Assembly: GCA_000447245.1 (NCBI GenBank)
Contig: AUYT01000001.1
Span: forward strand, 804,106-868,105
Source of the DNA: a candidate division Zixibacteria bacterium RBG-1
GTDB lineage: Bacteria > Zixibacteria > MSB-5A5 > DSPP01 > RBG-1
DNA: 64,000 nucleotides
Direction of reading: 5' to 3'
Shown here: positions 3,358 through 62,631 of the stretch, piece after piece
How positions within the stretch are numbered: position 1 is the stretch's first letter
How the letters are laid out: the number at the start of each line of letters is the position of its first letter
The notes under the pieces: generated by a model
Database searches by the model: none
What the model saw: only the letters and a program-made list of their open reading frames with translations
What the model was told of the DNA's origin: nothing
Position numbers and translations under genes: made by a program

Positions 3358-4899
3358 TTAATCGCTCAGCTTCTTTTCCGGTACAAAAGAAGTGGGTTTG
3401 CTTTCGGTTTTGGTTTTGACCAGAGTAGCCACGGTGCGGTTGGCTTTATTGAAATATTTCTGGGCCACCCGCATAATCTCCTCCGGGGTCACTTTCTTAC
3501 GCTCTTCTTTCAGAGTCAGCATGAATTTCCAGCTGCCGGTGACCGCATCATAGTTGGTCAGCTGAAAAGCCAGACCGGTATTGGAATTCAAAGAACGGGT
3601 AAAATCCGCCTCCAGCTGGTTGCGGGTTTTTTCCAGTTCCCATTGGGAGACCGGTTCGGTCTTTAATTTTTCCAGCTCGGTGTAAATTTCTTCCTCTAAT
3701 TCCTGAGTAGTATGAGGTGCCAGTGGGGTGGCTTGGATAGTGAATAAATCTGGATAACGGGACTGATAACTGGAAGCGTTAACATTCAGGGCTATTTTTT
3801 TAGCCTCTACTAAGTTTTTATAATATCTGGAAGTTCTACCACGAGATAGAATGCTGGATATTACATCCAGAACATAAGTATCCGGATGTCCGGCCTGAGG
3901 GGTATGATAACCGATTAACATCTGGGGATTGGCGTCGAATTGCACTTCGATTCTTCTTTCCCCCTGTTGCTCCGGCTCGGAAGTAAAAACTGCTTCCGGA
4001 GTGGGTTGAGGCGGAATATCGCCAAAATATTTTTCCACCAGCCTAACAACTTCTTTGGGATTTATATCCCCCACAATGGCTATCACACAATTGTTGGGGG
4101 AATAATGTCTTCTAAAATATTCCTGAACCTGTTCTCGTTTGACGGTGGAAATATCCGAAGCCCAGCCCACCACCGGCCAGCCGTAAGGATGAGCGGTAAA
4201 AGCTGTGGCGGCGAACTGCTCCCACAGTTTACCCAGAGGCTGGGTGTCTGTTCTAAGCCGTCTTTCTTCAAACACCACATCTCTTTCGGAATAAAATTCT
4301 CTTAAAACCGGCTCCCGCATCCGGTCCGATTCAATATAAGCCCACATCTCCAAACGGTTGGAAGGCAAGCTCACAAAATATTGAGTTCCGTCCTCGCTGG
4401 TGGAAGCATTCAACCCGGAGCCGCCGTTTCTCATATAGGTTTCCCACAGTTCATCTTTGAGAATGAATTTCTTTTGTTTTTGCTGCAGCTCTCTCAATTT
4501 CTCCCGCAGTTGCTTTAACTTGGGTTCATCTCCGCCAGCCAAAGGATTTTGCAGTCTCTTTTCTTCTTTTTCCATTTCCGCGGCGGTCTTATCAATCTCT
4601 TTCATCAGAGACACTTCGGCCTCATAATTCCAGGTTCCGATATTTTTGGTCCCCTTGAAGAGCATATGTTCCAGAAGATGGGAAGTTCCGGTAATGCCGG
4701 GCTCTTCATCCACACTTCCGACTTTGAACCGAATTACACAGGAGACCACCGGGGCGGTGTGCTTTTCCACCATTAAAAGTTGTAGGCCGTTCTTTAAGGT
4801 GTGCTCCTGGACATCCAGTTTGAATTCACCGGCCCAGAGAAGAGAGGAAAATATTATCAGAAGACTTACTGCTACATAAACCCTGAAACTCTTTTTCAC
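3358..4899 (-). CDS. M16 family zinc peptidase (catalytic subunit)
   Basis: 513 aa, signal peptide, inverted zinc motif HLLEHMLFKGT (HxxEH). Confidence 0.8.
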   Translation of the reverse strand: MKKSFRVYVAVSLLIIFSSLLWAGEFKLDVQEHTLKNGLQLLMVEKHTAPVVSCVIRFKVGSVDEEPGITGTSHLLEHMLFKGTKNIGTWNYEAEVSLMKEIDKTAAEMEKEEKRLQNPLAGGDEPKLKQLREKLRELQQKQKKFILKDELWETYMRNGGSGLNASTSEDGTQYFVSLPSNRLEMWAYIESDRMREPVLREFYSERDVVFEERRLRTDTQPLGKLWEQFAATAFTAHPYGWPVVGWASDISTVKREQVQEYFRRHYSPNNCVIAIVGDINPKEVVRLVEKYFGDIPPQPTPEAVFTSEPEQQGERRIEVQFDANPQMLIGYHTPQAGHPDTYVLDVISSILSRGRTSRYYKNLVEAKKIALNVNASSYQSRYPDLFTIQATPLAPHTTQELEEEIYTELEKLKTEPVSQWELEKTRNQLEADFTRSLNSNTGLAFQLTNYDAVTGSWKFMLTLKEERKKVTPEEIMRVAQKYFNKANRTVATLVKTKTESKPTSFVPEKKLSD

Positions 4900-4997
4900 C
4901 GCAACCTCCTTGAGGTTAAATTTTTTGGTGGTTGATTATAATAATTTTTTGTTAACTTGTCAATAAATTTTAAAAAAATTTCGATAAAATTTAAAAC

Positions 4998-5025
4998 TTG
5001 ACTTTTGGTTTCGAAAAACTATTTT
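4998..5025 (+). promoter_or_regulatory. putative sigma70-type promoter (TTGACT-16-TATTTT) upstream of the SDR gene
   Basis: -35/-10-like hexamers with 16-nt spacer about 15 nt before the ATG at 5040. Confidence 0.3.
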
Positions 5026-5039
5026 TGTAAAAACCAACT

Positions 5040-5771
5040 ATGATTTCAGTCCAGGACAAAATTGTCATCATCACCGGCGCCAGCCGGGGAATCGGCAAAG
5101 CCACGGCTCTGCTTTTTGGTGAAAAGGGGGCTAGGGTTGTTATAGCCGCCAGAAGCCAGGATGATTCGGAAAAAACCGCTTCGGAAATGATCAAGAAAAA
5201 TCCGAAAAGTGAGGTTCTGGCCGTGGTCAGTGATGTCACCCAGGAAAAGAGTATTAAAAATTTGGTTCAACAGGCCATCCAGAAGTTCGGTGGGATCGAT
5301 ATTCTGGTCAATAACGCCGGAATCGGTATAAATAAGCCGGTGGCGGAATTTACCACTTTGGATTGGGACCTGACTCTGGATACTAATTTAAAGGGACCTT
5401 TTTTAATTTCACGGGAAGTTTTGCCGATAATGATAAAGCAGAGAGGGGGGCAGATTATCAATATCTCCTCCGGAGCCGGGAAAAACCCCATTAAAAATTA
5501 CGCGGCTTACTGTGCTTCCAAATTCGGACTGATCGGTTTTTCAGAATCCTTGGCTTTGGAAGTGAGAAATTATAATATCAAGGTATCAGTTTTGTTGCCC
5601 GGTACCACTGCCACTCATTTCGGAGATAAAAAAAGAGAATATGTGGGTCTAAGACCGAAAAACTCTTTATTGCCCAAGGAGGTAGCCGAAGCGATTTTAA
5701 CTCTGGCAACGCAGGAGCCGCAGGCCTGGACTTCTGAAATGAATTTAAGACCATTAATTATTGAACCATAA
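5040..5771 (+). CDS. short-chain dehydrogenase/reductase (SDR) family oxidoreductase
   Basis: 243 aa; TGASRGIGKA Rossmann motif, NNAG, catalytic YAAYCASK (YxxxK). Confidence 0.85.
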   Translation: MISVQDKIVIITGASRGIGKATALLFGEKGARVVIAARSQDDSEKTASEMIKKNPKSEVLAVVSDVTQEKSIKNLVQQAIQKFGGIDILVNNAGIGINKPVAEFTTLDWDLTLDTNLKGPFLISREVLPIMIKQRGGQIINISSGAGKNPIKNYAAYCASKFGLIGFSESLALEVRNYNIKVSVLLPGTTATHFGDKKREYVGLRPKNSLLPKEVAEAILTLATQEPQAWTSEMNLRPLIIEP

Positions 5772-47173: not shown

Positions 47174-47656
47174 ATGATTCAGAGATATTTATACCAAGCC
47201 AAGCCGGAAAAAGTTTTCAAAGCTTTGACTGATGCCAAAGAGCTGACCAAATGGTTTTTAAAAGAGGCTCAGGTGCAGCTCAAGAAGGGGGGAAAGATGA
47301 GGTTTGTCTGGAGCCCCAAGGATAAGCACGAAAATAAGATTCTGGACTTAGTTCCCAATAAACGCTTAAGAATGACCTGGCCCACCATGGGCTGGGGAGG
47401 CACTCCTAAGACCGATACTTATGTCACCTTCAGTCTGACTCCTAAGGGAAAATCTACTCTTTTGCAGATAGAGCACACTGGTTTCGGACCCGGTGAGGAA
47501 TGGGTAATGTATTATGCCGGTACCTATTCGGGCTGGACTTATTATCTATTGAATTTGAAATCCTGGCTGGAGCACGGAATTGATTTGAGAGACAAAATAT
47601 CTGAAACTGTCATAACTGAAAACGATTCTGAAAAATCTAGGAAAGGGAAAAGATAG
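47174..47656 (+). CDS. SRPBCC-superfamily protein (AHSA1/START-like)
   Basis: 160 aa; pattern PEKVFKALTDAKELTKWF...TFSLTPKGKSTLLQIEHTGF typical of activator-of-Hsp90-ATPase-homologue-like proteins. Confidence 0.6.
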   Translation: MIQRYLYQAKPEKVFKALTDAKELTKWFLKEAQVQLKKGGKMRFVWSPKDKHENKILDLVPNKRLRMTWPTMGWGGTPKTDTYVTFSLTPKGKSTLLQIEHTGFGPGEEWVMYYAGTYSGWTYYLLNLKSWLEHGIDLRDKISETVITENDSEKSRKGKR

Positions 47657-47681
47657 TTTTTAAGATATCTTAAAAATTTAC

Positions 47682-48470
47682 ATGCGAAGATTTGGTTTAC
47701 ATCTGCTCCTCGGTTTCTTCCTGCTGATTTTTACAGCGGTTCAGCTTCAGGCCGGAAGACCCTTTGAGACGGAAGTTTCTGAAATTCATAATAATCAGAG
47801 GATTAAGTTCGATTTGGGGATAGATTATTCCCACATTGCTTCCCGGCAGGATTTGCTGGCTTTACCCTGGATAGGGATAAATTTTTCCACCGGTCAAATA
47901 GTGGAAATCCAGGCCTATTACGATTTTTTCTACCGCTTCACCAAGAGAGCTACCACAGTTTACGGCTCCGGGGATTTATCTTTGTGGACCAAATTAAGAT
48001 TCGTGGAAGAAAAAGGGAGTCGTCCAGCCGTCGGGTTACGCTTCGGTGTCAAACTTCCCAATGCCAAAGATGAGGTGGGATTGGGAACCGACCAGACCAA
48101 TTTCTACGCCGCTGGCTTAATCGGGAAAACCTGGAGAAAACTGGAGAATCATCTGAACTTAGGAATCGCCATCTACGACAGCCCCTTCCGGGTCAGGGAG
48201 CAAAAGGATTTGTTTACCTTAGCGTATTCTTCCATTTACAATTTTTCCCCTACCCTGCAGTTCGTTTTTGATTTCTACACCCAGCAAGGGGCCGACCTTC
48301 GCTTTAATCTGAATAAACTTACTCTGGGAAGCAGAATCGCGCATAAAAAATGGGTCTGGGAATTGGCTTTGAAAAAGGGAATCAACTCCATCAACAAAGG
48401 ATATCAGGGGGAACAATCCTTAGACTGGGGCTTAGTTTTATCCGCCAGCCGTTATTTTGATTTGAAGTAG
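47682..48470 (+). CDS. hypothetical outer-membrane beta-barrel protein
   Basis: 262 aa; signal peptide; alternating amphipathic beta-strand pattern; C-terminal aromatic-rich strand. Confidence 0.4.
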   Translation: MRRFGLHLLLGFFLLIFTAVQLQAGRPFETEVSEIHNNQRIKFDLGIDYSHIASRQDLLALPWIGINFSTGQIVEIQAYYDFFYRFTKRATTVYGSGDLSLWTKLRFVEEKGSRPAVGLRFGVKLPNAKDEVGLGTDQTNFYAAGLIGKTWRKLENHLNLGIAIYDSPFRVREQKDLFTLAYSSIYNFSPTLQFVFDFYTQQGADLRFNLNKLTLGSRIAHKKWVWELALKKGINSINKGYQGEQSLDWGLVLSASRYFDLK

Positions 48471-53172: not shown

Positions 53173-54720
53173 ATGAGAAACAAAGTTGTGTTAGCAGTGG
53201 TATTTTTATTATGGATGGGACTTGCTTGGGCAGATACTCCCCAGCTGATTAATTTTCAGGGTCGACTGACTGATTCTTTGGGAAACCCTGTGAGTAATGG
53301 TGCCTATAGTTTACGCTTCAGAATCTACGATGATTCTTTGGCTGGTAATATTTTGTGGGAAGAGACCGACCCGGTTCAGGTAAAATCTGGACTTTTTACG
53401 GTGCTTCTGGGTTCAACTAATTCAATTCCGGATAGCGCTTTTTATTCTGCTAATCGCTGGTTAGGAATAAAAATCGGTACAAACCCTGAAATTACACCCA
53501 GACAGAGATTGGCTTCCGTGGGTTACAGCTATGTTTCTTCCCAATGGAACTCGGCTGACTCGAATCTCTATCGGATAAAGGGAAAAGTCGGCATTGGAAC
53601 TTCCACTCCCACCTTCGCAAAGCTGGAGGTCGTCGCCTCCAGTGGCATCGGCGTTTTCGCTTCGGGCAGCCCTGGCGTTTACGGCACCAGCTCATCAGGC
53701 ACTGGTGTTTTTGGCGAGGGTTCCTTGTACGGCCTTTACGGCAACAGCAACGGCACTGGAGTTTTCGGCACGGGCCCCCAGTACGGCGTTCACGGTGATG
53801 GGTACAACGGCACGGGCGTTTACGGCGAGGGCGACACGGCTGGCGTTAGCGGCCAAAGTATATCAGGCACTGGCGTTCGCGCCTTATCATATAACGGCCC
53901 CGGTGTTGTCGCTTCGGGTAGCACGTACGGCGTTTCCGGCACAAGCACCGGAGGCACTGGCGTTAGAGGCATTAGCGGCAGCGGCTATGGCGTTTATGCC
54001 TCGGGCGGCCCGAACGGCGTTGTCGCTTATGCAACTAATTCTGGCGGCTCGGCTGTTTACGGCTCGGGCGTCACGTATGGTGTTTACGGTGTGGCAAGCG
54101 CCAACAACGGCTCCGGTGTTTATGGTTCAAACGGCGGGAATCCCTCGACATATGCCGGCTACTTCGTCGGAACCGTTTACGTGGCCGGTGACTTTTATGC
54201 TGTAGGAACAACCAAAAGCGCCGCCGTGAAAGTCAACAACGGCGAATATCGGGTGCTTTATGCGCAGGAATCCCCCGAAAACTGGTTTGAGGATTTCGGC
54301 ACGGCCCAGTTGGTGAATGGCCAAGCCACTGTGAATATCGATCCCCTCTATGCCCAAACGGTAAATACGGCAGTAACCTATTACGTCTTCTTGACTCCGG
54401 AAGGGGATTGTCAGGGACTTTTCGTTACCGGCAAGACCCCGGCCTGTTTTGAGGTGCGGGAACTGCAAAACGGGAAATCCAACCTGTCGGTGAGTTATCG
54501 AATCGTGGCCAAAAGGAAGGGCTATGAAAACGTCCGCCTGCCCAAACTGCCCGGCCTAACTCCGGAAGAGGTTCAAGCCAAAGACGTCAAGCTCCGGGCC
54601 GAGATGGCCAAAGAAAACGCTGGGCACCTAGAGGAACAAGCCCGAATGGAGCAGGAACGTAAGAAAATGGAAGAAGAGCGCACCAAAATGGAGCAAGAAT
54701 GTTTGCTTCCCAAGCGGTAA
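53173..54720 (+). CDS. secreted glycine-rich repeat protein with GC-rich repetitive core and C-terminal coiled-coil
   Basis: 515 aa; signal peptide; about 20 tandem G-x-GV(Y/F)G-like repeats encoded by locally GC-rich DNA (53600-54200); C-terminal globular region and charged tail EEQARMEQERKKMEEERTKMEQE. Confidence 0.5.
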   Translation: MRNKVVLAVVFLLWMGLAWADTPQLINFQGRLTDSLGNPVSNGAYSLRFRIYDDSLAGNILWEETDPVQVKSGLFTVLLGSTNSIPDSAFYSANRWLGIKIGTNPEITPRQRLASVGYSYVSSQWNSADSNLYRIKGKVGIGTSTPTFAKLEVVASSGIGVFASGSPGVYGTSSSGTGVFGEGSLYGLYGNSNGTGVFGTGPQYGVHGDGYNGTGVYGEGDTAGVSGQSISGTGVRALSYNGPGVVASGSTYGVSGTSTGGTGVRGISGSGYGVYASGGPNGVVAYATNSGGSAVYGSGVTYGVYGVASANNGSGVYGSNGGNPSTYAGYFVGTVYVAGDFYAVGTTKSAAVKVNNGEYRVLYAQESPENWFEDFGTAQLVNGQATVNIDPLYAQTVNTAVTYYVFLTPEGDCQGLFVTGKTPACFEVRELQNGKSNLSVSYRIVAKRKGYENVRLPKLPGLTPEEVQAKDVKLRAEMAKENAGHLEEQARMEQERKKMEEERTKMEQECLLPKR

Positions 54721-55037
54721 GGCAACTCTTGGCAGGTTACCGGTATCAGACAGGATGCTTATGCCAACGCCCATCGGATTCCTGTAGAAGAAGAAAAAAT
54801 AGCTAAGGAGAAAGGATATTATTTACATCCCGAACTTTTTGGCCAGCCGGAAGAAAAACAACTTGGATGGGTCCATCATCCAGAAATGATGAAACAAGCT
54901 AAAGAAAAAAGAGAGCAAGAGGCCAAGCAGATTAAAACAGAATAACTCTTGAGCAGTTGGCAAAAAATTTGTGAGTGGCCGATTATAAGATAGTTGTGAA
55001 TTTCATCCGCTAACCCCAGTTTTTTTATTTGACAGAA

Positions 55038-55200
55038 AATTCTGGTGCAAAAAATCAGAGTTCTAAACTTGTCCCAGATCCCCAATTTACACCGAGCGTA
55101 GTGGTTCGACTATGCTCACCATAAATCGAGGGACTTATGGACAAGTGTAACAAACGGGGGTTTCCTCGATTCGCTCAGGCAGGCTCGGAATAAACAAATC
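55038..55200. repeat. intergenic repeat related to 52921-53071
   Basis: AATTCTGGTGCAAAAAATCAGAGTTCTAAACTTGTCC...GGTTCGACTATGCTCACCATAAATCG...TTTCCTCGATTCGCTC; a partial relative (GGTTCGACTGCGCTCACCATAAAAGG) is at 137-162. Confidence 0.5.
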
Positions 55201-55249
55201 CTGGTCCTTCAGTAATTATTCGCCATTTTATACTTTTTTAATTTTTTAC

Positions 55250-55290
55250 TTGACAAGCCCCTTTAACCAGCGTATTCATATATATGAATA
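55250..55290 (+). promoter_or_regulatory. putative promoter (TTGACA-17-TATTCA) overlapped by perfect 18-bp palindrome TATTCATATATATGAATA
   Basis: Palindrome at 55273-55290 overlaps the -10 element upstream of the Rrf2 gene; a related motif GTATATTCATATAATATGACAT is at 55871-55892 upstream of nirK. Confidence 0.45.
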
Positions 55291-55322
55291 CAAGGTCATA
55301 TATTCTGTAAAGGAAAACAATT

Positions 55323-55757
55323 ATGATATTTACACCCAGCTTTGAATACGCCCTGCAGGCTTTGATATATCTAGCCGGGAAGGGCAATGGCAGCCCGGTT
55401 CAAGTCAAAGATATTGCCCAGGCCGAGGATATTCCTAAGTATTTTTTGGCTAAAATTCTGAATCATTTAGATCACGAAAATTTAGTAAAATCAGTCAAAG
55501 GTCCAGGAGGAGGGTTTAAACTTAGCCGGCCGGCCAATCGAATCAGGGTGAGTGAACTAATAGATGTATTTGAAGGGCTTGACCACCTAGACAAAGTTTG
55601 TATTTTAGGGTTGGATAGGTGTCAGGAACCAAACAGCTGTGCTTTGCATAAAGAGTGGAAGCAATTTCGCCAGTTGTTGAAAAAAAGGGTACAAAAATTG
55701 ACCATAGCTGATATGTGGAAAATACGGGAAACCAAAAGAGATCTCAATAAAAAATAG
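55323..55757 (+). CDS. Rrf2 family transcriptional regulator (NsrR-like by context)
   Basis: 144 aa; Rrf2 wHTH (FEYALQALIYLA, GPGGGFKLSR); two of the usual three cluster-ligand Cys visible (CILGLDRCQ). Confidence 0.75.
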   Translation: MIFTPSFEYALQALIYLAGKGNGSPVQVKDIAQAEDIPKYFLAKILNHLDHENLVKSVKGPGGGFKLSRPANRIRVSELIDVFEGLDHLDKVCILGLDRCQEPNSCALHKEWKQFRQLLKKRVQKLTIADMWKIRETKRDLNKK

Positions 55758-55820
55758 AAGATGACAGCAAATTTTAAGCCCAAACTCAAAGCCGAGGGAT
55801 TAAATTTTTATAAAAAATAC

Positions 55821-55849
55821 TTGACAAGGGTTTTTTTATTGTGTATCTA
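55821..55849 (+). promoter_or_regulatory. putative sigma70-type promoter (TTGACA-17-TATCTA) upstream of nirK
   Basis: Consensus -35 hexamer; followed by the Rrf2-site-like motif at 55871-55892. Confidence 0.4.
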
Positions 55850-55987
55850 ATAATAGATGAGTAAAGGTTCGTATATTCATATAATATGACATAATAAAAG
55901 TGAGAGAAAAAACTATAACACTAGATAACTTTTAAAAGGAGGAGCTATGTCATCTAACACATTAAAGAGCTCAAACTACCAACTATT

Positions 55988-57040
55988 ATGGTGGTCTCTC
56001 TGATGTCGGTGGTTTTATTGTTGGGTATTAGCTGGCTGGTTTCAGGTTGTGGCGGTGAAGGGCAAACCGAATCTTTGAAAGAGGCAGTTTATGGCTCCCC
56101 GGAAGCTCAAATTTCAATGGAGAAACCGACTACTTCTGAACTGTATTCGGGAGCGGCTTTGAGCATTGCGCCGGAAGTAAACCCAGTACCCAATGCCAAA
56201 GTCCATGAGGTCCGTTTGGACGTGACCCATAGCGAAATTCAGGTAACCGAAGGGGTGAAATTCGTAGCCTGGACTTTTGGTGGAACTTTACCAGGTCCGG
56301 TATTGCACGTTCGTCAAGGAGACCGAGTTAGATTTACCATGACTAATCGGTCTGACCAAACCGTATCCTTTTCACCGCCCACTCCACATTCCATCGATTT
56401 CCATGCCGCCATGGTCAATCCGGCTGACAAATATAGAGAAGTCATTCCCGGAGCCACCATCAAATTTGAATGGGTAGCCAATTATCCCGGTGTATTTATG
56501 TATCACTGCGGCTCTCCCGCAATTTTACAACATATGATTTATGGCATGATTGGGATGACCATTGTGGAGCCGAAAAATGGTTACCCCACCAAGGTAGACC
56601 GGGAATTTGCTTTAGTACAAAGCGAGTTATACTTAACTAAAATGAAAAGCGGTATGTATCTGGTGGATATGGAAGCCGCCAAACAAAAGAAAGCCACCTA
56701 TGTAACTTTTAATGGAATTCCCAAACAGTATGTCGACAAGCCCTTACAAGCTAAACCCGGTGAAAGAGTCAGAATATATATACTAAATGCGGGACCAAAC
56801 GGAACTTCCAGTTTCCATGTGGTGGGTACTTTATTCGATAAAGCCTGGTTTGATGGAAATCCACAAAATGAGCAAAGAGGGTTACAGACTGTAATTTTAG
56901 GTTCCAGCAACGGCGCTATTGTTGAATTTGTTATCCCGGAAGCGGGAACTTATACTTTTGTGGACCATGAATTTGCGGATGTAGAGTTAGGAGCAGTCGG
57001 ACAAATAGTGGCTAAAAGTGAGGCGATAGCCAGTAAGTAA
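55988..57040 (+). CDS. nirK: copper-containing nitrite reductase (NO-forming)
   Basis: 350 aa; lipoprotein-type leader (LVSGC); type-1/type-2 Cu ligand contexts HSIDFHAA and YHCGSPAILQHMIYGM (Cys-x8-His-x4-Met); C-terminal HVVG and FVDHEF regions parallel known NirK. Confidence 0.85.
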   Translation: MVVSLMSVVLLLGISWLVSGCGGEGQTESLKEAVYGSPEAQISMEKPTTSELYSGAALSIAPEVNPVPNAKVHEVRLDVTHSEIQVTEGVKFVAWTFGGTLPGPVLHVRQGDRVRFTMTNRSDQTVSFSPPTPHSIDFHAAMVNPADKYREVIPGATIKFEWVANYPGVFMYHCGSPAILQHMIYGMIGMTIVEPKNGYPTKVDREFALVQSELYLTKMKSGMYLVDMEAAKQKKATYVTFNGIPKQYVDKPLQAKPGERVRIYILNAGPNGTSSFHVVGTLFDKAWFDGNPQNEQRGLQTVILGSSNGAIVEFVIPEAGTYTFVDHEFADVELGAVGQIVAKSEAIASK

Positions 57041-57054
57041 AACAGGTTAAACCG

Positions 57055-57612
57055 ATGCGCAAATTTAGTTCCATATTTATATTAATGATCTTACCATGTC
57101 TGGTGTGGGGAAATACCTCCCTAAACGCTCCTCCTAAACAGGTTAGGAGTTTTTCCCCAGGAACCAAGGGCACAGTACTGATATTTGTTTCCAGTCTGTG
57201 CCCTTGTACTGATGCCCACAGGATTATGGTGGAAAATTTAATGACTAGAATGCCAGCCAGTGGATTCAAATTTTATGCGGTGTTCTCCAATAAAGGGGAA
57301 ACTACCGAACTGATAGAGTATTTCTATCGGACCATTGGCTGGCAGATGCCTTATATTTTGGATAGTAGCGGAACTTTGCAAAAAAAATATAAAGCCACCC
57401 ATACCCCTCAAGCCTTTGTGATAAGTCCTCAAAATAAAGTGCTTTATAGAGGACCAATCGACGACAGTAACTTAAATCAGGGACGAGTAGATAATCCTTA
57501 TTTAAAAAATGCTTTAGAGGATCTTTTGGCAGGAAGAGCTGTTAAAGCTTCTGAGGTGGCTGGGACCGGCTGCTGGATTGTTAGAAGTATTTCTTCAAAA
57601 GAACTGAAATAG
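57055..57612 (+). CDS. thioredoxin-fold protein (SCO/TlpA-like), exported
   Basis: 185 aa; signal peptide; Cys motif VSSLCPCTDAH in a thioredoxin-like context. Confidence 0.45.
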   Translation: MRKFSSIFILMILPCLVWGNTSLNAPPKQVRSFSPGTKGTVLIFVSSLCPCTDAHRIMVENLMTRMPASGFKFYAVFSNKGETTELIEYFYRTIGWQMPYILDSSGTLQKKYKATHTPQAFVISPQNKVLYRGPIDDSNLNQGRVDNPYLKNALEDLLAGRAVKASEVAGTGCWIVRSISSKELK

Positions 57613-58246: not shown

Positions 58247-58404
58247 CTCTTAGAAGAAGGAGGAAAAATGAAAAGAGTGTTAAAACTTTTATAGATTTAG
58301 AATTAACTGTCAAGAGTAATATTTTTTTCTTGACAAATTAATTCTGCTGGATGATATTTAGAGAAGTTAAAAAAAATTGAAACAAGGACGGGGAAGGAGG
58401 ACGA

Positions 58405-59319
58405 ATGAAAAAGAAAAATAAAGTTTGGGTAGGTCTGGGGGTACTCTATCTGGTTGTTTTTCTATTGTGTTGGGGAACGATAACTTCCAGAAGTCAAGAA
58501 ACTTCTGCTGGAGCTACCTATGTCGGCTCCGAGTTGTGCTTAACCTGCCACCAGGATCTTTTGGCAACCTACGAACACACCATCCATTACAAAATCGCCC
58601 AGGATCCCAGAAATGAACTGGAGCAAAAAGGGTGTGAATCCTGCCATGGTCCAGGAAGTATGCACACTGAAGACCCTAGTAATGTGAAAATTCCAGTTTC
58701 TTTTGCTAAAAAGACAAAAACTCCGGTAAAAGATCAGAATGAAGCCTGCTTACAATGTCATGAAAAAACCCACTTGAACTGGTCGGGTAGCATCCATGAC
58801 TCCAGAGAGTTAGCTTGTGCCACTTGCCATCATATTAAAGAAAATCTTACAGATAGATTTCTGTTGGCTAAGGCTAACCAGTCGGATTTATGTGGCTCCT
58901 GCCATAGGGCTCAAAAAGCCAAAACCATGAAGGCCTATCACATGACGGTAAGGGATGGAAAATTAGAATGCACTTCTTGTCATAATCCTCATGGAACTAA
59001 TACAGATAAGCTGTTAGTGGAGAACTCAGTCAATGAAACCTGCTATAAATGTCACGCTGAAAAAAGAGGCCCTTTTTTGTGGCCGCATCCTCCGGTGACG
59101 GAGAATTGTCTGAATTGTCATGACCCCCACGGCTCTAACCATAACAAGATGTTGCTTACCAAAGTGCGCCGGATCTGTCAGAGGTGCCATGTTGAAACCA
59201 GGCATCCCACCACCCCTCAGACTGCCAATAACCTTTATCTCATCAACCATGCCTGTGCTAACTGCCATTCTCAAATTCATGGTTCTAACCACCCCTCTGG
59301 GGTAAGATTTCTCAGATAG
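58405..59319 (+). CDS. decaheme c-type cytochrome (MtrA/DmsE/PioA-like)
   Basis: 304 aa; signal peptide; ten CxxCH motifs (CLTCH, CESCH, CLQCH, CATCH, CGSCH, CTSCH, CYKCH, CLNCH, CQRCH, CANCH); RBS GGAAGGAGG. Confidence 0.85.
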   Translation: MKKKNKVWVGLGVLYLVVFLLCWGTITSRSQETSAGATYVGSELCLTCHQDLLATYEHTIHYKIAQDPRNELEQKGCESCHGPGSMHTEDPSNVKIPVSFAKKTKTPVKDQNEACLQCHEKTHLNWSGSIHDSRELACATCHHIKENLTDRFLLAKANQSDLCGSCHRAQKAKTMKAYHMTVRDGKLECTSCHNPHGTNTDKLLVENSVNETCYKCHAEKRGPFLWPHPPVTENCLNCHDPHGSNHNKMLLTKVRRICQRCHVETRHPTTPQTANNLYLINHACANCHSQIHGSNHPSGVRFLR

Positions 59320-59327
59320 GAGGAAAA

Positions 59328-61538
59328 ATGAAAAAAAAGAGCTTATTTTTTTTAATCCTAAGTTTAACCCTTTTTTTGCCGGTATATAGCCAGACTACCT
59401 CCAGCGGAGATGTCGATATAGGCTTCTATCAGATTTCGGGATATACCTTATCCAACAAGTACTTAGAATACAGAGACTATAGAGAAGGAATTGCTTTAAA
59501 TGGATTATCTTATTTTCTGGGAAGCAAAATCGGGTTTCTGGATTTAAAAGCTACGGGAATTGCTAGAAATGACCAAACTTCTGCTTTGCGTTTAGGAAAA
59601 TACGGAAGATATTATCTCAATTTGAGCTGGGACCAGACTCCCCATATTTTTAGCAACCACTCTAAACTTTTCTTCAGCGAAACTCAAAAGGGAGTCTATA
59701 CACTTGCCGATTCAATCCAAGCCCGCCTGCAGGGAGCTTCCGATGCTCAAATACGGAGTTTGATGGCCAGCTACCTTTCACAAGCCCAGAGGTTCCCCCT
59801 CTCCTATCGCAGAGATAAGGCCATCGGTGAGGTAAAGATTTCTCCCACTCGGGATATAGCGCTAAAGGTTTCTTATACTAACGAGAAAAAGAAAGGATAC
59901 AAAGCCACCAGCGGGACCCCCGGAGGTTTTAACATGATTGACCTGCCGGAGCGGATTGATTTTTTGACTCATCAGGTTGATGCGCAAGCGCAGTATTCTC
60001 AAAAAAATTGGTCGATCATTGGAGATGTGGGAGTCTCGGTTTTCGACAATAAGCTGGAAGCTTTGAACTGGGATAATCCCTTCCGGCTCACCGACACAAC
60101 CGGCGGGGCCACCAGGACTTCTAAGATAAGAATGGGTGTAGCCCCGGATAACTGGTCCGGGAACACCAGTATTACCGGTTTTGCCAAGTTACCCTTTTAT
60201 AACATTCAATCCCGGGCTACCATAGGTTATGGAATAACCAGACAAGACGAAAACTTCTTGCCCCATACCAGTAACTCGGCTTTAGTGGATACCCTTGACC
60301 CCTTGATTCTGCCCAAGTCCAGTCTGGAAGGAGAAATCCGGACCGTAACCGGAAGTTATTTTGTCACCGCCCGACCGATTAAAGAACTCTTTTTGGAAGC
60401 CAATTTTAAATACGATGAATTCGACAATCAGACCGAAGAGATTATTTTCCCCAGCCGGGTGTCACAGGGCGATCAATCGCTCGACACCTTAGGCCGAGCC
60501 AGTTTACCATATGAATATATCAAGAGATACTACGGCCTCAAAGCCAATTTCAAACCGATCTCTTATGTCTCTGTAGGTCTGGGGTACAATTATGAACGCT
60601 TTTCGCGTGATTTCAGGAATGTGAGGAAGTCCGGCGAGAACAGCTATCGCTTTTCATTGGATTTGTTCCCGCTCTCCTGGGTAACGGTTCGCAACAGTTA
60701 TACCCGTTCAGAGCGAAAGGCCGAAGCTTACAACGCGGATGCAGTGGAAGAGACTTTTCCGGAAGGGGAGGCGGTGGTTAATCCACTCTTAGAAGAACTG
60801 AGGAGATTTGACCAGGCTGACCGAAATCGGGATAGATTTGTCTCTCAGGCATCGCTCGAGGTCTTTGATAAAGTGGATTTGATGTTGGGGGCTCATATTC
60901 AGTTGGATGATTATCCAGAGAGTCATTATGGGGTAAAAGAGGGTCGGTCCACGGCCCTTTCTGCGGGAGTTAATTACTATCCGATTCCCCGATTCAGTTT
61001 TTATGGAGATTACACCCGAGAATATTTGTTCACAGATATGCAGTCCCGCTATAGAAATGTGGTGGGTGGTGTCGGGACAGACGACACTTTGGATGATTGG
61101 GGTACCAAGGTCAGAGATTTGACAGATCTCTTTTCACTCGGATTTCTAGTGGACGTTATTCCCCAAAAATTGAGTTGGCAAGTCAACTACACCTATTCTT
61201 ACTCCTGGGGCAAAAACGACAACTATTTCACTCCTGGTGGAGCGCGATCCGGTGGTGGAGTGGATCCGGCCTACGATGATTCCTTACTCTGGCCTATGAC
61301 CAAAAATGAACTGCAGACAGCTAATTCCTTCATTAGGTATAAGATTTCAGAAAAGGTTTCGGTCTGGGGTGAGTACCGCTTCGAGAAATATTTTATCAAG
61401 GATTTCACCATAGATGACGTTGATCCCCAGGAGTTAGGAACCGGTGGTACTCAGGGAACTCGGTCGATATTTTTAGCTGCCACTCAGCCGGATTATGAAG
61501 GGCATTTATTTGGCTTGAAGTTGGCTTATTCATTTTGA
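59328..61538 (+). CDS. large outer-membrane beta-barrel protein (MtrB/PioB-like by context)
   Basis: 736 aa; signal peptide; long run of amphipathic beta-strands; C-terminal LKLAYSF with terminal Phe; follows the decaheme gene by 8 nt. Confidence 0.5.
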   Translation: MKKKSLFFLILSLTLFLPVYSQTTSSGDVDIGFYQISGYTLSNKYLEYRDYREGIALNGLSYFLGSKIGFLDLKATGIARNDQTSALRLGKYGRYYLNLSWDQTPHIFSNHSKLFFSETQKGVYTLADSIQARLQGASDAQIRSLMASYLSQAQRFPLSYRRDKAIGEVKISPTRDIALKVSYTNEKKKGYKATSGTPGGFNMIDLPERIDFLTHQVDAQAQYSQKNWSIIGDVGVSVFDNKLEALNWDNPFRLTDTTGGATRTSKIRMGVAPDNWSGNTSITGFAKLPFYNIQSRATIGYGITRQDENFLPHTSNSALVDTLDPLILPKSSLEGEIRTVTGSYFVTARPIKELFLEANFKYDEFDNQTEEIIFPSRVSQGDQSLDTLGRASLPYEYIKRYYGLKANFKPISYVSVGLGYNYERFSRDFRNVRKSGENSYRFSLDLFPLSWVTVRNSYTRSERKAEAYNADAVEETFPEGEAVVNPLLEELRRFDQADRNRDRFVSQASLEVFDKVDLMLGAHIQLDDYPESHYGVKEGRSTALSAGVNYYPIPRFSFYGDYTREYLFTDMQSRYRNVVGGVGTDDTLDDWGTKVRDLTDLFSLGFLVDVIPQKLSWQVNYTYSYSWGKNDNYFTPGGARSGGGVDPAYDDSLLWPMTKNELQTANSFIRYKISEKVSVWGEYRFEKYFIKDFTIDDVDPQELGTGGTQGTRSIFLAATQPDYEGHLFGLKLAYSF

Positions 61539-61766
61539 GAAATGATCACAAGAGCTTGACTACCAACTGGATAGGAGGGGTATTTAACATATATTAAGAG
61601 TGTTTGTGTCGACATAAGTCATTTAGACATACGACGTTGTAATTTACCGACGTTGGTCTAGAAGTGCAAATGAGGGAAATATTGTGAATTTTTTCACTTG
61701 CTAAGCAGATCTTACGTATGTATTATAAAGAATAGATAGAAACAGGTCTAAAAAGGAGGATAAAGT

Positions 61767-62174
61767 ATGAAGCTCAAAGAACTGGTCTTACTGATTTTGG
61801 TACTCGCAATTTCGGTCTTCGTTACTCGGTTTTTGGTTACAGTGGAACCGGCCCATGGAACAACACCGACCGGAAAAGAACTGTATCAAAAACATTGCGC
61901 TTCTTGTCATGGCGCGGATGCTAAGGGCGTGGAGAAGATGGCTAAAATGTTAAAAGTCACCATCAGGGATTTGACCAAGCTGGCTAACATTCCAGATTCC
62001 ACCAAAACCTGGCCGAAAATTATCGCAGACGGAAAAGCCAAGATGCCGGCTTTTAATAAAAAACTGAAAGAGGCAGAAGTGAGTTCCGTTATAGCCTACA
62101 TTCATACCTTGGCGCCGGCTTCAGGCAAGAGCGAGACTCCAGCAGCCAAGGATACCACTAAGGTTACAAAATAG
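61767..62174 (+). CDS. monoheme class I cytochrome c
   Basis: 135 aa; N-terminal membrane anchor or signal; single CASCHG motif; Lys/Thr-rich C-terminal tail. Confidence 0.7.
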   Translation: MKLKELVLLILVLAISVFVTRFLVTVEPAHGTTPTGKELYQKHCASCHGADAKGVEKMAKMLKVTIRDLTKLANIPDSTKTWPKIIADGKAKMPAFNKKLKEAEVSSVIAYIHTLAPASGKSETPAAKDTTKVTK

Positions 62175-62205
62175 AAACCAGAACCCAAATTTTTTAGGAG
62201 CAAAA

Positions 62206-62631
62206 ATGAAAAGCAAAAATTGGACAATATATCTGAGCCTCGTAATAATTACATCCTTAGCAGTTTTTTTGATTTTTAGAACTGGTCAGAGCCAAGCCCA
62301 AAAAGTGACTGCCAAAGATTTATACAAGAAAAGCTGTGCCGCCTGTCATGGAGAAGATGGCAAGGGTGTGGAAAAGATGGCCAAGATGCTGAAAGCCACC
62401 ATTCGAGACGTTACCAAACTAACTATGACAGCAGAGCTGTCCAAAGAATGGGATAAGGTCACTAAAGACGGAAAAGGAAAGATGCCGGCTTACAAAGCCA
62501 AACTCAAACCAGCTGAAATCGATTCGGTCCTGGCTTATATGCAAACCATGACTGTTAAACCGACTAAGTCAGAAACGGCTGAAGCTAAGGATACCACTAA
62601 GGTTTCTAAAGATACGACCAAAGTAAAATAG
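62206..62631 (+). CDS. monoheme class I cytochrome c (paralogue)
   Basis: 141 aa; CAACHG; core closely parallels the preceding gene (GKGVEKMAKMLKATIRD, DGKGKMPAYKAKLK). Confidence 0.7.
   Translation: MKSKNWTIYLSLVIITSLAVFLIFRTGQSQAQKVTAKDLYKKSCAACHGEDGKGVEKMAKMLKATIRDVTKLTMTAELSKEWDKVTKDGKGKMPAYKAKLKPAEIDSVLAYMQTMTVKPTKSETAEAKDTTKVSKDTTKVK

Follow-up and report, generated by a model that had tools for sequence, protein, structure and literature searches.

A conserved 24-bp imperfect dyad as the probable operator of an Rrf2-family regulator at the rrf2 and nirK promoters of a Zixibacteria bacterium

Introduction

In the genome of the candidate division Zixibacteria bacterium RBG-1 (GenBank assembly GCA_000447245.1, contig AUYT01000001.1), a gene for an Rrf2-family regulator (rrf2) is followed by a gene for a NirK-like copper nitrite reductase (nirK). 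This arrangement raises the question of which DNA elements such a regulator would recognize at the two promoters, and which known regulatory system they resemble. An original prediction, made from the letters of the sequence, named a perfect palindrome at the rrf2 promoter and a similar motif upstream of nirK as the cognate operator pair of an NsrR-type repressor. This proposal was followed up in a stretch of 64,000 nucleotides (positions 804,106 to 868,105 of the contig), here called the window, to which all coordinates refer unless another locus is named.

Among the Rrf2 regulators with comparable roles, NsrR represses nirK in Nitrosomonas europaea and acts on nirK/aniA and norB in Neisseria, and on hmpA1, hmpA2 and its own gene in Streptomyces coelicolor. 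IscR is autoregulated via sites at its own promoter.

The comparison with related loci points to a different element. A 24-bp imperfect dyad is conserved just past the -10 box of both promoters, at 55284-55307 (O1) and 55857-55880 (O2). These two sites are probably the operators of an autoregulated iron-sulfur (Fe-S) repressor that belongs to an uncharacterised Rrf2 subfamily, and they would define a new operator consensus. This reading is given a probability of about 0.68. The earlier interpretation is right in kind and wrong in detail. The idea of a cognate operator pair holds in that both promoters share a conserved dyad placed like a repressor operator, and fails in the boundaries given for it. 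Similarly, autoregulation and control of nirK are the best reading of the shared dyad, and would not be exerted through NsrR-type palindromes.

Loci and methods

There are 12 close homologues of the Rrf2 protein with 62-90% identity, and those with a taxonomic label are Zixibacteria. The promoter comparison is based on 12 non-redundant rrf2 loci with promoters, which span 62-100% Rrf2 protein identity; loci other than the window are given as L numbers. The closest relative with promoters is L022 (Rrf2 91% identical). L020 does not differ from the window over the stretches read (Rrf2 100%, flanks identical) and is not independent of it. The rrf2 promoter (R1) was aligned over the 12 loci, and the promoter immediately downstream of rrf2 (R2) was compared in nine loci. 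A weight matrix of the conserved element was trained on 17 sites from other genomes, with the window left out. Since these sites are evolutionarily related, the scores gauge conservation and not independent recurrence. In the window, rrf2, nirK, the gene following them and the -35 and -10 boxes of R1 and R2 lie on the plus strand. The GC content in 2-kb steps is 38-47%, mostly 40-45%, so the genome is not as AT-rich as had been assumed.

The conserved element

When the 12 R1 promoters are aligned, only two blocks are conserved: the -35 region, in which CTTGACA is invariant or nearly so, and a 24-mer that starts 2-5 nt past the -10 hexamer. The spacer, the details of the -10 box, the leader and the upstream genes all vary among these loci. 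The same 24-mer follows the -10 box of R2 in nine loci, most of which have the pattern TATAAT-AG-ATGAGTAAAGGTTCRTATATTCAT (TATAAT-AG in seven relatives); in L025, the hexamer is TAAACT and the gap is longer. The consensus is the imperfect dyad ATGARTAnAnGG/TCATnTATTCAn, the slash dividing its halves, with the symmetric core GARTAnAnG-nn-CnTnTAYTC. Positions G3, A4, T6, A7, G11, T13, C14, T16, T18, A19, T21 and C22 are invariant or nearly so.

In the window, the proposed Rrf2 operator O1 reads ATGAATACAAGG/TCATATATTCTG (ATGAATACAAGGTCATATATTCTG), begins 5 nt past its -10 box and lies over the expected rrf2 transcription start. Its proposed counterpart at the nirK promoter, O2, reads ATGAGTAAAGGT/TCGTATATTCAT (ATGAGTAAAGGTTCGTATATTCAT) and begins 7 nt past its -10 box. 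The two are identical at 17 of 24 bases with a register offset of 573; the pairing of 55273-55290 with 55871-55892 in the original prediction corresponds to an offset of ~601. Both promoters also share the -35 region TACTTGACAAG (55247-55257 and 55818-55828), in which the TTGACA box occupies 55250-55255 in R1 and 55821-55826 in R2; the latter is invariant in the nine orthologous R2 promoters.

O1 and O2 score 30.4 and 30.3 bits with the weight matrix, and the next best site on both strands of the window reaches 13.8 bits. In 200 Markov-1 randomisations, the maximum score was 12.8 +/- 2.2 bits on average and 18.4 bits at its highest. The degenerate core GARTANNNGKYYNNNTAWTC matches the window at O1 and O2 only, and no O-like site precedes the other cluster genes of the window (the Big_5 gene, mtrA and the cytochrome c genes), where scores are below 0.

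The site precedes rrf2 in 12 of 12 loci whatever the neighbouring genes, which is the classic pattern of autoregulation. It is this invariable linkage across differing neighbourhoods that suggests Rrf2 as the binder, and the position of the site suggests repression as the direction of control. Solved Rrf2-DNA complexes show imperfect palindromes of 23-29 bp under a dimer ~80 Å long (PMC9338935), and the 24-mer matches them in size and in its imperfect dyad. More distant homologues share 43-50% identity and come from GC-rich organisms (Gemmatimonadota, Eiseniibacteriota and others). Their upstream regions hold no convincing motif except in L032, a GC-rich genome in which a weaker copy of 14.9 bits follows a -10-like box upstream of a 46%-identical homologue. 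Resemblances of the form GARTT-N10-TACTC were seen by eye in L028 and L029 and are too weak.

The symmetry of the element is pronounced. Compared with its own reverse complement, the matrix gives a correlation of r = 0.70 in one register and of at most 0.18 in six others tested. Each of the pairs 3-22, 4-21, 6-19, 7-18, 9-16 and 11-14 shows Watson-Crick complementarity in 14-19 of the 19 sites, and complementary cells make up 82.5% overall, compared to 30-56% when the partner columns are slid. Some sites are near-perfect 11+11 inverted repeats, such as TGAGTAGATGG/TCATCTATTCA in L038.

This symmetry has to be weighed against a possible role as an oriented promoter-proximal or 5'-leader element. 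Its reader would be RNA polymerase, the ribosome or else an RNA-binding factor, and it might for example be a standby site, a stability element or an initial-transcribed sequence. Relative to transcription, every copy points the same way and occupies the same place just past the -10 box. The centre GG/TC is conserved yet asymmetric (AAGG/GGTC), and AAAGG is like a Shine-Dalgarno core. A purely symmetric operator leaves these features unaccounted for, and they would also fit an oriented element, as would the downstream promoters of L006, which keep only the left half and the centre. Such an element is nevertheless improbable given the strong two-fold symmetry in one register only. Moreover, with a transcription start ~7 nt past the -10 box, the left arm lies at or before +1, and the real ribosome-binding sites are found further downstream. 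No stable RNA structure is predicted either: the nirK leader RNA folds no better than shuffled sequences (z = +0.61), and the Rfam search gave no relevant match. No covariation beyond shuffles was found among the symmetric pairs, which are conserved.

Two more specific RNA-level candidates were considered. An RNA hairpin or riboswitch is unsupported, as no RNA hairpin can have a loop of only 2 nt such as the invariant pair 11-14 would require. A leader peptide could start at the ATG of the left arm, from which an 11-codon ORF in L001, L004 and L006 ends in ATGA on the rrf2 start. It was excluded because this ATG is not conserved and is replaced by CTG, TAG, AAG, CAG, ACG or TTA at other sites.

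Besides the uniform orientation and the asymmetric centre, several other observations weigh against O1 and O2 as Rrf2 operators. The sites are orthologous or paralogous copies, and their conservation among relatives of 85-91% is partly shared ancestry. In the clade of L004 and L006, the downstream promoters keep the left half and the centre only (10.9-12.4 bits), and the nirK promoter of L004 is without a site (3.2 bits). In the lineage of the window, the -10 boxes of both module promoters depart from those of the relatives and nirK carries a frameshift, so that the module may be decaying or differently regulated in this genome. Finally, the matrix scan covered the 64-kb window, and the other loci were viewed over ~8 kb or less each.

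The limited view and the fact that the binder is deduced from linkage alone would also suit an operator of a different, unlinked transcription factor of which rrf2 is merely a target. This is very unlikely in view of the site preceding rrf2 at every locus regardless of its neighbours, of a length and dyad geometry that suit Rrf2 dimers, and of there being no other regulator gene consistently nearby. Binding by the Rrf2 protein itself is therefore the preferred reading.

The perfect palindrome

The 18-mer TATTCATATATATGAATA is present at 55273-55290 exactly as claimed and is a perfect palindrome. It is longer than noted, since one extra base on each side extends it to 20 bp (GTATTCATAT/ATATGAATAC, 55272-55291; P1). 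The claimed overlap with the -10 box of R1 also holds: TTGACA is followed after a 17-nt spacer by TATTCA at 55273-55278, which aligns with the -10 boxes of the relatives. Orthologues have TATAAT there, or in other cases TATGAT, TATAGT, TATATT or CATAAT, and TATTCA is restricted to this genome.

P1 thus consists of the -10 region and the left arm of O1, and it is lineage-specific. Its left half is the -10 hexamer and is unconserved in 11 of 11 orthologous rrf2 promoters. The counterpart in L022 reads TATAAT-TC-AAGAGTA and forms no palindrome, and L021 has a different, (TA)n-based palindrome with again a different spacing (TCATATAT-T-ATATATGA). An identical P1 occurs only in L020, possibly the same source as the window. 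The -10 region of this lineage probably mutated to TATTCAT, which by chance is the reverse complement of the O1 left arm ATGAATA. The perfect palindrome is therefore most likely a lineage-specific by-product that merely overlaps the conserved operator element. As a caution for similar cases, the most conspicuous feature would not be the conserved functional unit.

Taken alone, P1 is only moderately unusual: when the whole window is randomised by a Markov-1 model, 11.5% of the sequences contain a perfect palindrome whose arms are 10 bp or longer, and a second one exists in the real sequence. The chance of such a palindrome in the 832 nt of local intergenic sequence is P ~0.001. The second perfect 20-bp palindrome, TTTTTAAGATATCTTAAAAA at 47657-47676, occupies most of the 25-bp gap between the co-directional ORFs 47174-47656 and 47682-48470.

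The proposed partner motif, GTATATTCATATAATATGACAT, was likewise found where it had been reported, at 55871-55892, between the nirK promoter and its ribosome-binding site GGAGG (55938-55942). It is composed of the O2 right arm TATTCAT followed by ATAATATGAC, and it has the exact 10-mer TATTCATATA in common with P1. Its core is the 13-bp palindrome TCATATAATATGA at 55877-55889 (P2), which overlaps the right arm of O2 and holds a perfect TATAAT at 55880-55885. The core can be written TCATAT-A-ATATGA and has one extra central base compared to P1, and for this reason the two motifs are not the same dyad. No second copy of the 18-mer exists in the window at up to three mismatches (at least one match in 6 of 100 shuffles), which means that the two motifs cannot be aligned without a gap. 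The P2 core is preserved only in the closer relatives (5 of 8) and is absent from L025 and L039. In L022, a 3-bp insertion after TATAAT breaks its spacing and retains the hexamer itself. The sequence TCATATAATATGA does not look like a Fur-, PerR- or FNR-type box.

It is unlikely that P1 and the motif at 55871-55892 themselves form a cognate NsrR-type operator pair. Such a pair would explain why P1 is perfect, unique in the window and locally improbable, why the 10-mer and TCAT...ATGA arms recur in both motifs, and why the P2 core is retained in five relatives. However, half of P1 is a -10 box that differs in every orthologous promoter, and the palindrome is missing in L022. The central spacing is 0 nt in one motif and 1 nt in the other, with yet another value in L021 and the insertion in L022, and the half-sites are everted relative to the conserved dyad. 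In addition, (TA)n-rich -10 regions are inherently self-complementary, P2-type patterns like TCATATNATATGA are no commoner than chance, the NsrR consensus is absent, and the protein is no NsrR equivalog.

The conservation of P2 may have another cause. The TATAAT at 55880-55885 could be the second -10 box of a tandem promoter instead of part of a palindromic binding site, with the O2 left arm ATGAGT as a weak -35 box 17 nt upstream and O2 in the spacer. At this place, eight of nine R2 promoters have TATAAT, TATATT or TATTAT, and the insertion in L022 ruins the palindrome and spares the hexamer. A second promoter would also be useful in the window, where the upstream -10 box is disrupted. According to the alignment, a 5-bp insertion that occurs in this genome only (TAT-CTAAT-AAT, within 55845-55851) interrupts the TATAAT of all eight relatives and shifts O2 five bases away. 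At the 17-nt spacing, this leaves TATCTA as the -10 box of R2 (55844-55851). On the other hand, the supposed -35 box matches at only three of six positions and was not called by a consensus scan, and AT-rich leaders often hold -10-like hexamers by chance. A tandem promoter is a possible though doubtful explanation for P2.

The regulator

The rrf2 gene (55323-55757) encodes a winged helix-turn-helix protein of 144 aa, and its assignment to the Rrf2 family is confirmed by PF02082 (7e-31, 107.5 bits against a cut-off of 30, residues 6-132). The threshold of the Rrf2 superfamily model TIGR00738 is also passed (110.5 against 73.3). The three cysteines expected of a cluster-binding member, C93, C100 and C106, are invariant in 13 orthologues, and E8 and H109 are nearly invariant. 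With these cysteines, the protein appears to belong to the Fe-S subgroup of Rrf2 regulators (IscR, NsrR, RirA type).

The NsrR-type label could not be maintained. The protein scores 60.7 bits with the NsrR equivalog model NF008240, whose cut-off is 182, and the score for IscR is higher (77.9 against 207.55, TIGR02010; 59.9 against 275, NF008110). CymR (60.7 against 195) and RirA (56.3 against 193) are in the same range, and the protein seems roughly equidistant from the characterised subfamilies. It is not a demonstrable NsrR.

With NsrR, an NO (nitric oxide)-sensing [4Fe-4S] repressor, the protein shares the Rrf2 fold and the three cluster cysteines, and the half-site of its predicted operator likewise begins with ATG. 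As described for NsrR, the regulator gene adjoins a copper nitrite reductase gene (PMC1274295), and the predicted regulon is small, includes the regulator's own gene and has an imperfect palindromic operator like the ~23-bp one of NsrR (PMC9338935). PMC5411485 names Asp8 as the fourth cluster ligand of S. coelicolor NsrR, and the protein studied here has an acidic residue, E8, at this position. Other features differ. The S. coelicolor NsrR structure 5n07 is matched at only E = 1e-7, and a histidine stands at the IscR-type fourth-ligand position. The arms GARTA and TAYTC are 10 bp apart with a conserved centre, and the targets in relatives are Cyc2-like and MtrA/MtrB-type genes, not hmp. The NsrR operator consensus gATGyAT-N5-ATrCATc (PMC1274295) has its best match in 55200-55960 at 4 of 14 mismatches, inside the coding region, with none in the promoters, and its matches across the window are below chance. 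In the same region, neither the 11-1-11 motif of Escherichia coli NsrR nor the 23-bp motif of S. coelicolor hmpA1 has an acceptable match.

IscR, the [2Fe-2S] regulator of Fe-S biogenesis, is the best match among solved structures (E. coli IscR 4hf2, E = 6e-12) and among NCBIfam equivalogs. The arrangement C-x6-C-x5-C-x2-H aligns with the cluster positions of IscR, namely Cys92, Cys98 and Cys104, which are alanine in the crystallised variants, and with the ligand His107. Unlike IscR, the gene has nirK, cytochromes and porins as neighbours and not isc or suf genes, and position 43 in the recognition helix is alanine here and glutamate in IscR. The best matches of the type-1 and type-2 IscR motifs in 55200-55960 have 7-9 mismatches.

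Like the iron- or redox-sensing regulators RirA and RsrR, the protein would be a dimeric Fe-S Rrf2 repressor with inverted-repeat operators over promoters. An iron or redox signal is conceivable in view of the connection with iron-related outer-membrane cytochromes. The RirA box TGA-N9-TCA has no exact match in the promoter regions, because the dyad holds TGA-N8-TCA off its symmetry axis. The ligands of RsrR, presumably His12 and Cys110, have no counterpart here, position 12 being Q. Taken together, there is no canonical NsrR, IscR or RirA operator at either promoter.

In the proposed mechanism, a homodimer of the 144-aa Rrf2 protein, probably cluster-bound, would bind the 24-bp imperfect inverted repeat at O1 and O2. 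Both sites would span the expected start from about -6 to +20, so that a bound dimer could block polymerase binding or open-complex formation. This would result in negative autoregulation and in repression of nirK and probably the genes behind it, and of Cyc2-like or Mtr-type genes in relatives. The Fe-S-type ligand set would consist of C93, C100 and C106 with E8 and/or H109, and the repressor would leave the DNA once the cluster is lost or modified. The residues at the positions of S. coelicolor NsrR Asp8 (E8) and of the IscR-type fourth ligand (H109) are both conserved, so that the sequence does not favour one type of cluster. The trigger could be NO, the redox state or the iron or Fe-S supply: NO is attractive as the product of NirK, and iron, Fe-S status or redox would fit the cytochrome targets equally well.

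If confirmed, these sites would give an uncharacterised Rrf2 subfamily of an uncultivated phylum its operator consensus and a small regulon, and the weight matrix can be used for annotating this regulon in Zixibacteria genomes.

The wider clade of homologues with 43-50% identity probably has a different role. In several GC-rich members (L008-L017 and L028-L035; Gemmatimonadota and Eiseniibacteriota among those labelled), the protein encoded upstream of the Rrf2 homologue has the C-terminus ...GGRxLxWPPG, an ending typical of HIT-family proteins. Their downstream genes are unrelated to nirK; the C-x6-C-x5-C-x2-H arrangement and the recognition helix IPRHFLAKILN are kept.

Targets and neighbouring genes

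An O2-type promoter lies directly before nirK in the window, in L021 and L041, and in L022, and very probably also in L007 and L037, where the contigs end before the gene. In L005 and L025, it precedes a decahaem mtrA, which is followed by mtrB in L005. In L001 and L038, where the downstream site of L038 is weak (11.4 bits), it precedes the gene of a 430-433-aa protein that matches no family and has a single CXXCH at its N-terminus as well as a PRL motif; cytochromes c follow. No hmp, norB or hcp gene was seen at the loci examined.

Single-CXXCH proteins of 430-471 aa with an aromatic residue at the C-terminus are encoded in L001 (4583-5884), L038 (1201-2493), L006 (5369-6784) and L004 (6846-8162), and none of them matches a Pfam or NCBIfam family. 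The signature of Cyc2 consists of a single N-terminal CXXCH after PXFAR[Q/K][T/Y], followed by PXL, in a protein of at least 365 aa with a porin-like remainder (PMC8406198). The 471-aa protein of L006 has this signature in full (AFPAFARKT..CTGCH..PVL), and the 438-aa protein of L004 comes near it (MPNFARNT..CTGCH..PKL). The proteins of L001 and L038 diverge from it (WTRKY or WSRKY..CxxCH..PRL). By these motifs, the single-haem proteins beside rrf2 and nirK look like Cyc2-type fused cytochrome-porins. In L006, the product of the first gene after rrf2 (4548-5273; 241 aa) matches CarboxypepD_reg weakly and contains the cupredoxin-like motif H...C-x2-H-x2-M (CNVHGWM); the next genes are cyc2, a dihaem cytochrome c gene and nirK. 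In L039 (~840-980; the same in L040), only the last ~50 codons of nirK remain past the O2-type promoter (..SSNGAIVEFVIPEAGIYTFVDHEFADVELGAGGQIVAKSEAIASK, then the stop), and most of the gene seems to have been deleted.

These targets allow a further, tentative reading. The Rrf2 clade might be an Fe-S sensor with a previously undescribed operator that coordinates NirK with outer-membrane conduits of the Fe(II)-oxidation type in Zixibacteria. These conduits would comprise Cyc2-like cytochrome-porins, decahaem-porin pairs of the MtoA/MtoB type and periplasmic cytochromes c. If true, this would be a transcriptional switch dedicated to a module in which iron oxidation is linked to nitrite or NO. 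It would tie nirK to Cyc2- and Mto-type genes, which serve as markers of neutrophilic Fe(II) oxidation, and one Fe-S regulator may gate the module. The publication of the Zixibacteria genome reports NirK without a nitric oxide reductase and reads an Mtr-like cluster as Fe(II) oxidation, with no mention of regulation or Rrf2 (PMC3903129). A literature search on Rrf2 together with Cyc2 or MtoA gave no paper with both, and no regulator for a nitrite- or NO-linked iron-oxidation module is reported in the literature searched.

The identification of the gene after rrf2 as a NirK-like copper nitrite reductase was upheld. As it stands, the ORF at 55988-57040 encodes 350 aa, is 97% identical to that of L041 and has the domains Cu-oxidase_3 and Cu-oxidase_2. 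It is a two-domain multicopper protein that matches TIGR02376 with 191.1 bits (E = 3e-56), below the equivalog cut-off of 296.3. By eye, the motifs HSIDFH, YHCGSPAILQHMIYGM, SSFHVVG and FVDHEF appear to fit the copper-ligand motifs.

In the orthologues L021, L022 and L041, nirK is one continuous ORF of 364 aa. In the window, one G is missing, with AAGAGGCTC of these three relatives changed to AAGAGCTC. This 1-nt deletion puts the first 18 codons, which stand behind the strong GGAGG, out of frame with the ORF restarting at 55988 and leaves them as a detached N-terminal fragment (55947-56003). The frameshift could be a real lesion, could be bypassed by a translational restart at 55988 or could be an assembly error, and the departing -10 regions of R1 and R2 may likewise be either genuine or errors of the assembly.

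A redoxin/AhpC-like gene (57055-57612) starts 14 nt after nirK and is probably co-transcribed with it from R2; the same gene pair is found in L004. After the redoxin gene, the same strand encodes a Big_5-domain protein, a decahaem cytochrome, an MtrB/PioB porin and two monohaem cytochromes c. The last four (58405-62631), of which the decahaem cytochrome belongs to the DmsE/MtrA family (10 CXXCH), correspond to an Mto/Pio-like outer-membrane electron conduit. The mtrA gene has its own promoter-like sequence, TTGACA-17-GATATT (58330-58358), and no O-type site.

On the other side of rrf2, the ~300 nt between 54945 and the rrf2 promoter are without an ORF. Further upstream, 53173-54720 encodes a glycine-rich repeat protein of 515 aa without a Pfam match, which ends with TAA at 54718-54720. 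Past this stop, 74 in-frame sense codons continue to the next stop at 54943-54945 and are coding-like and charged (GNSWQVTG...KQIKTE); a nonsense mutation, readthrough or a sequencing error are possible explanations for this extension.

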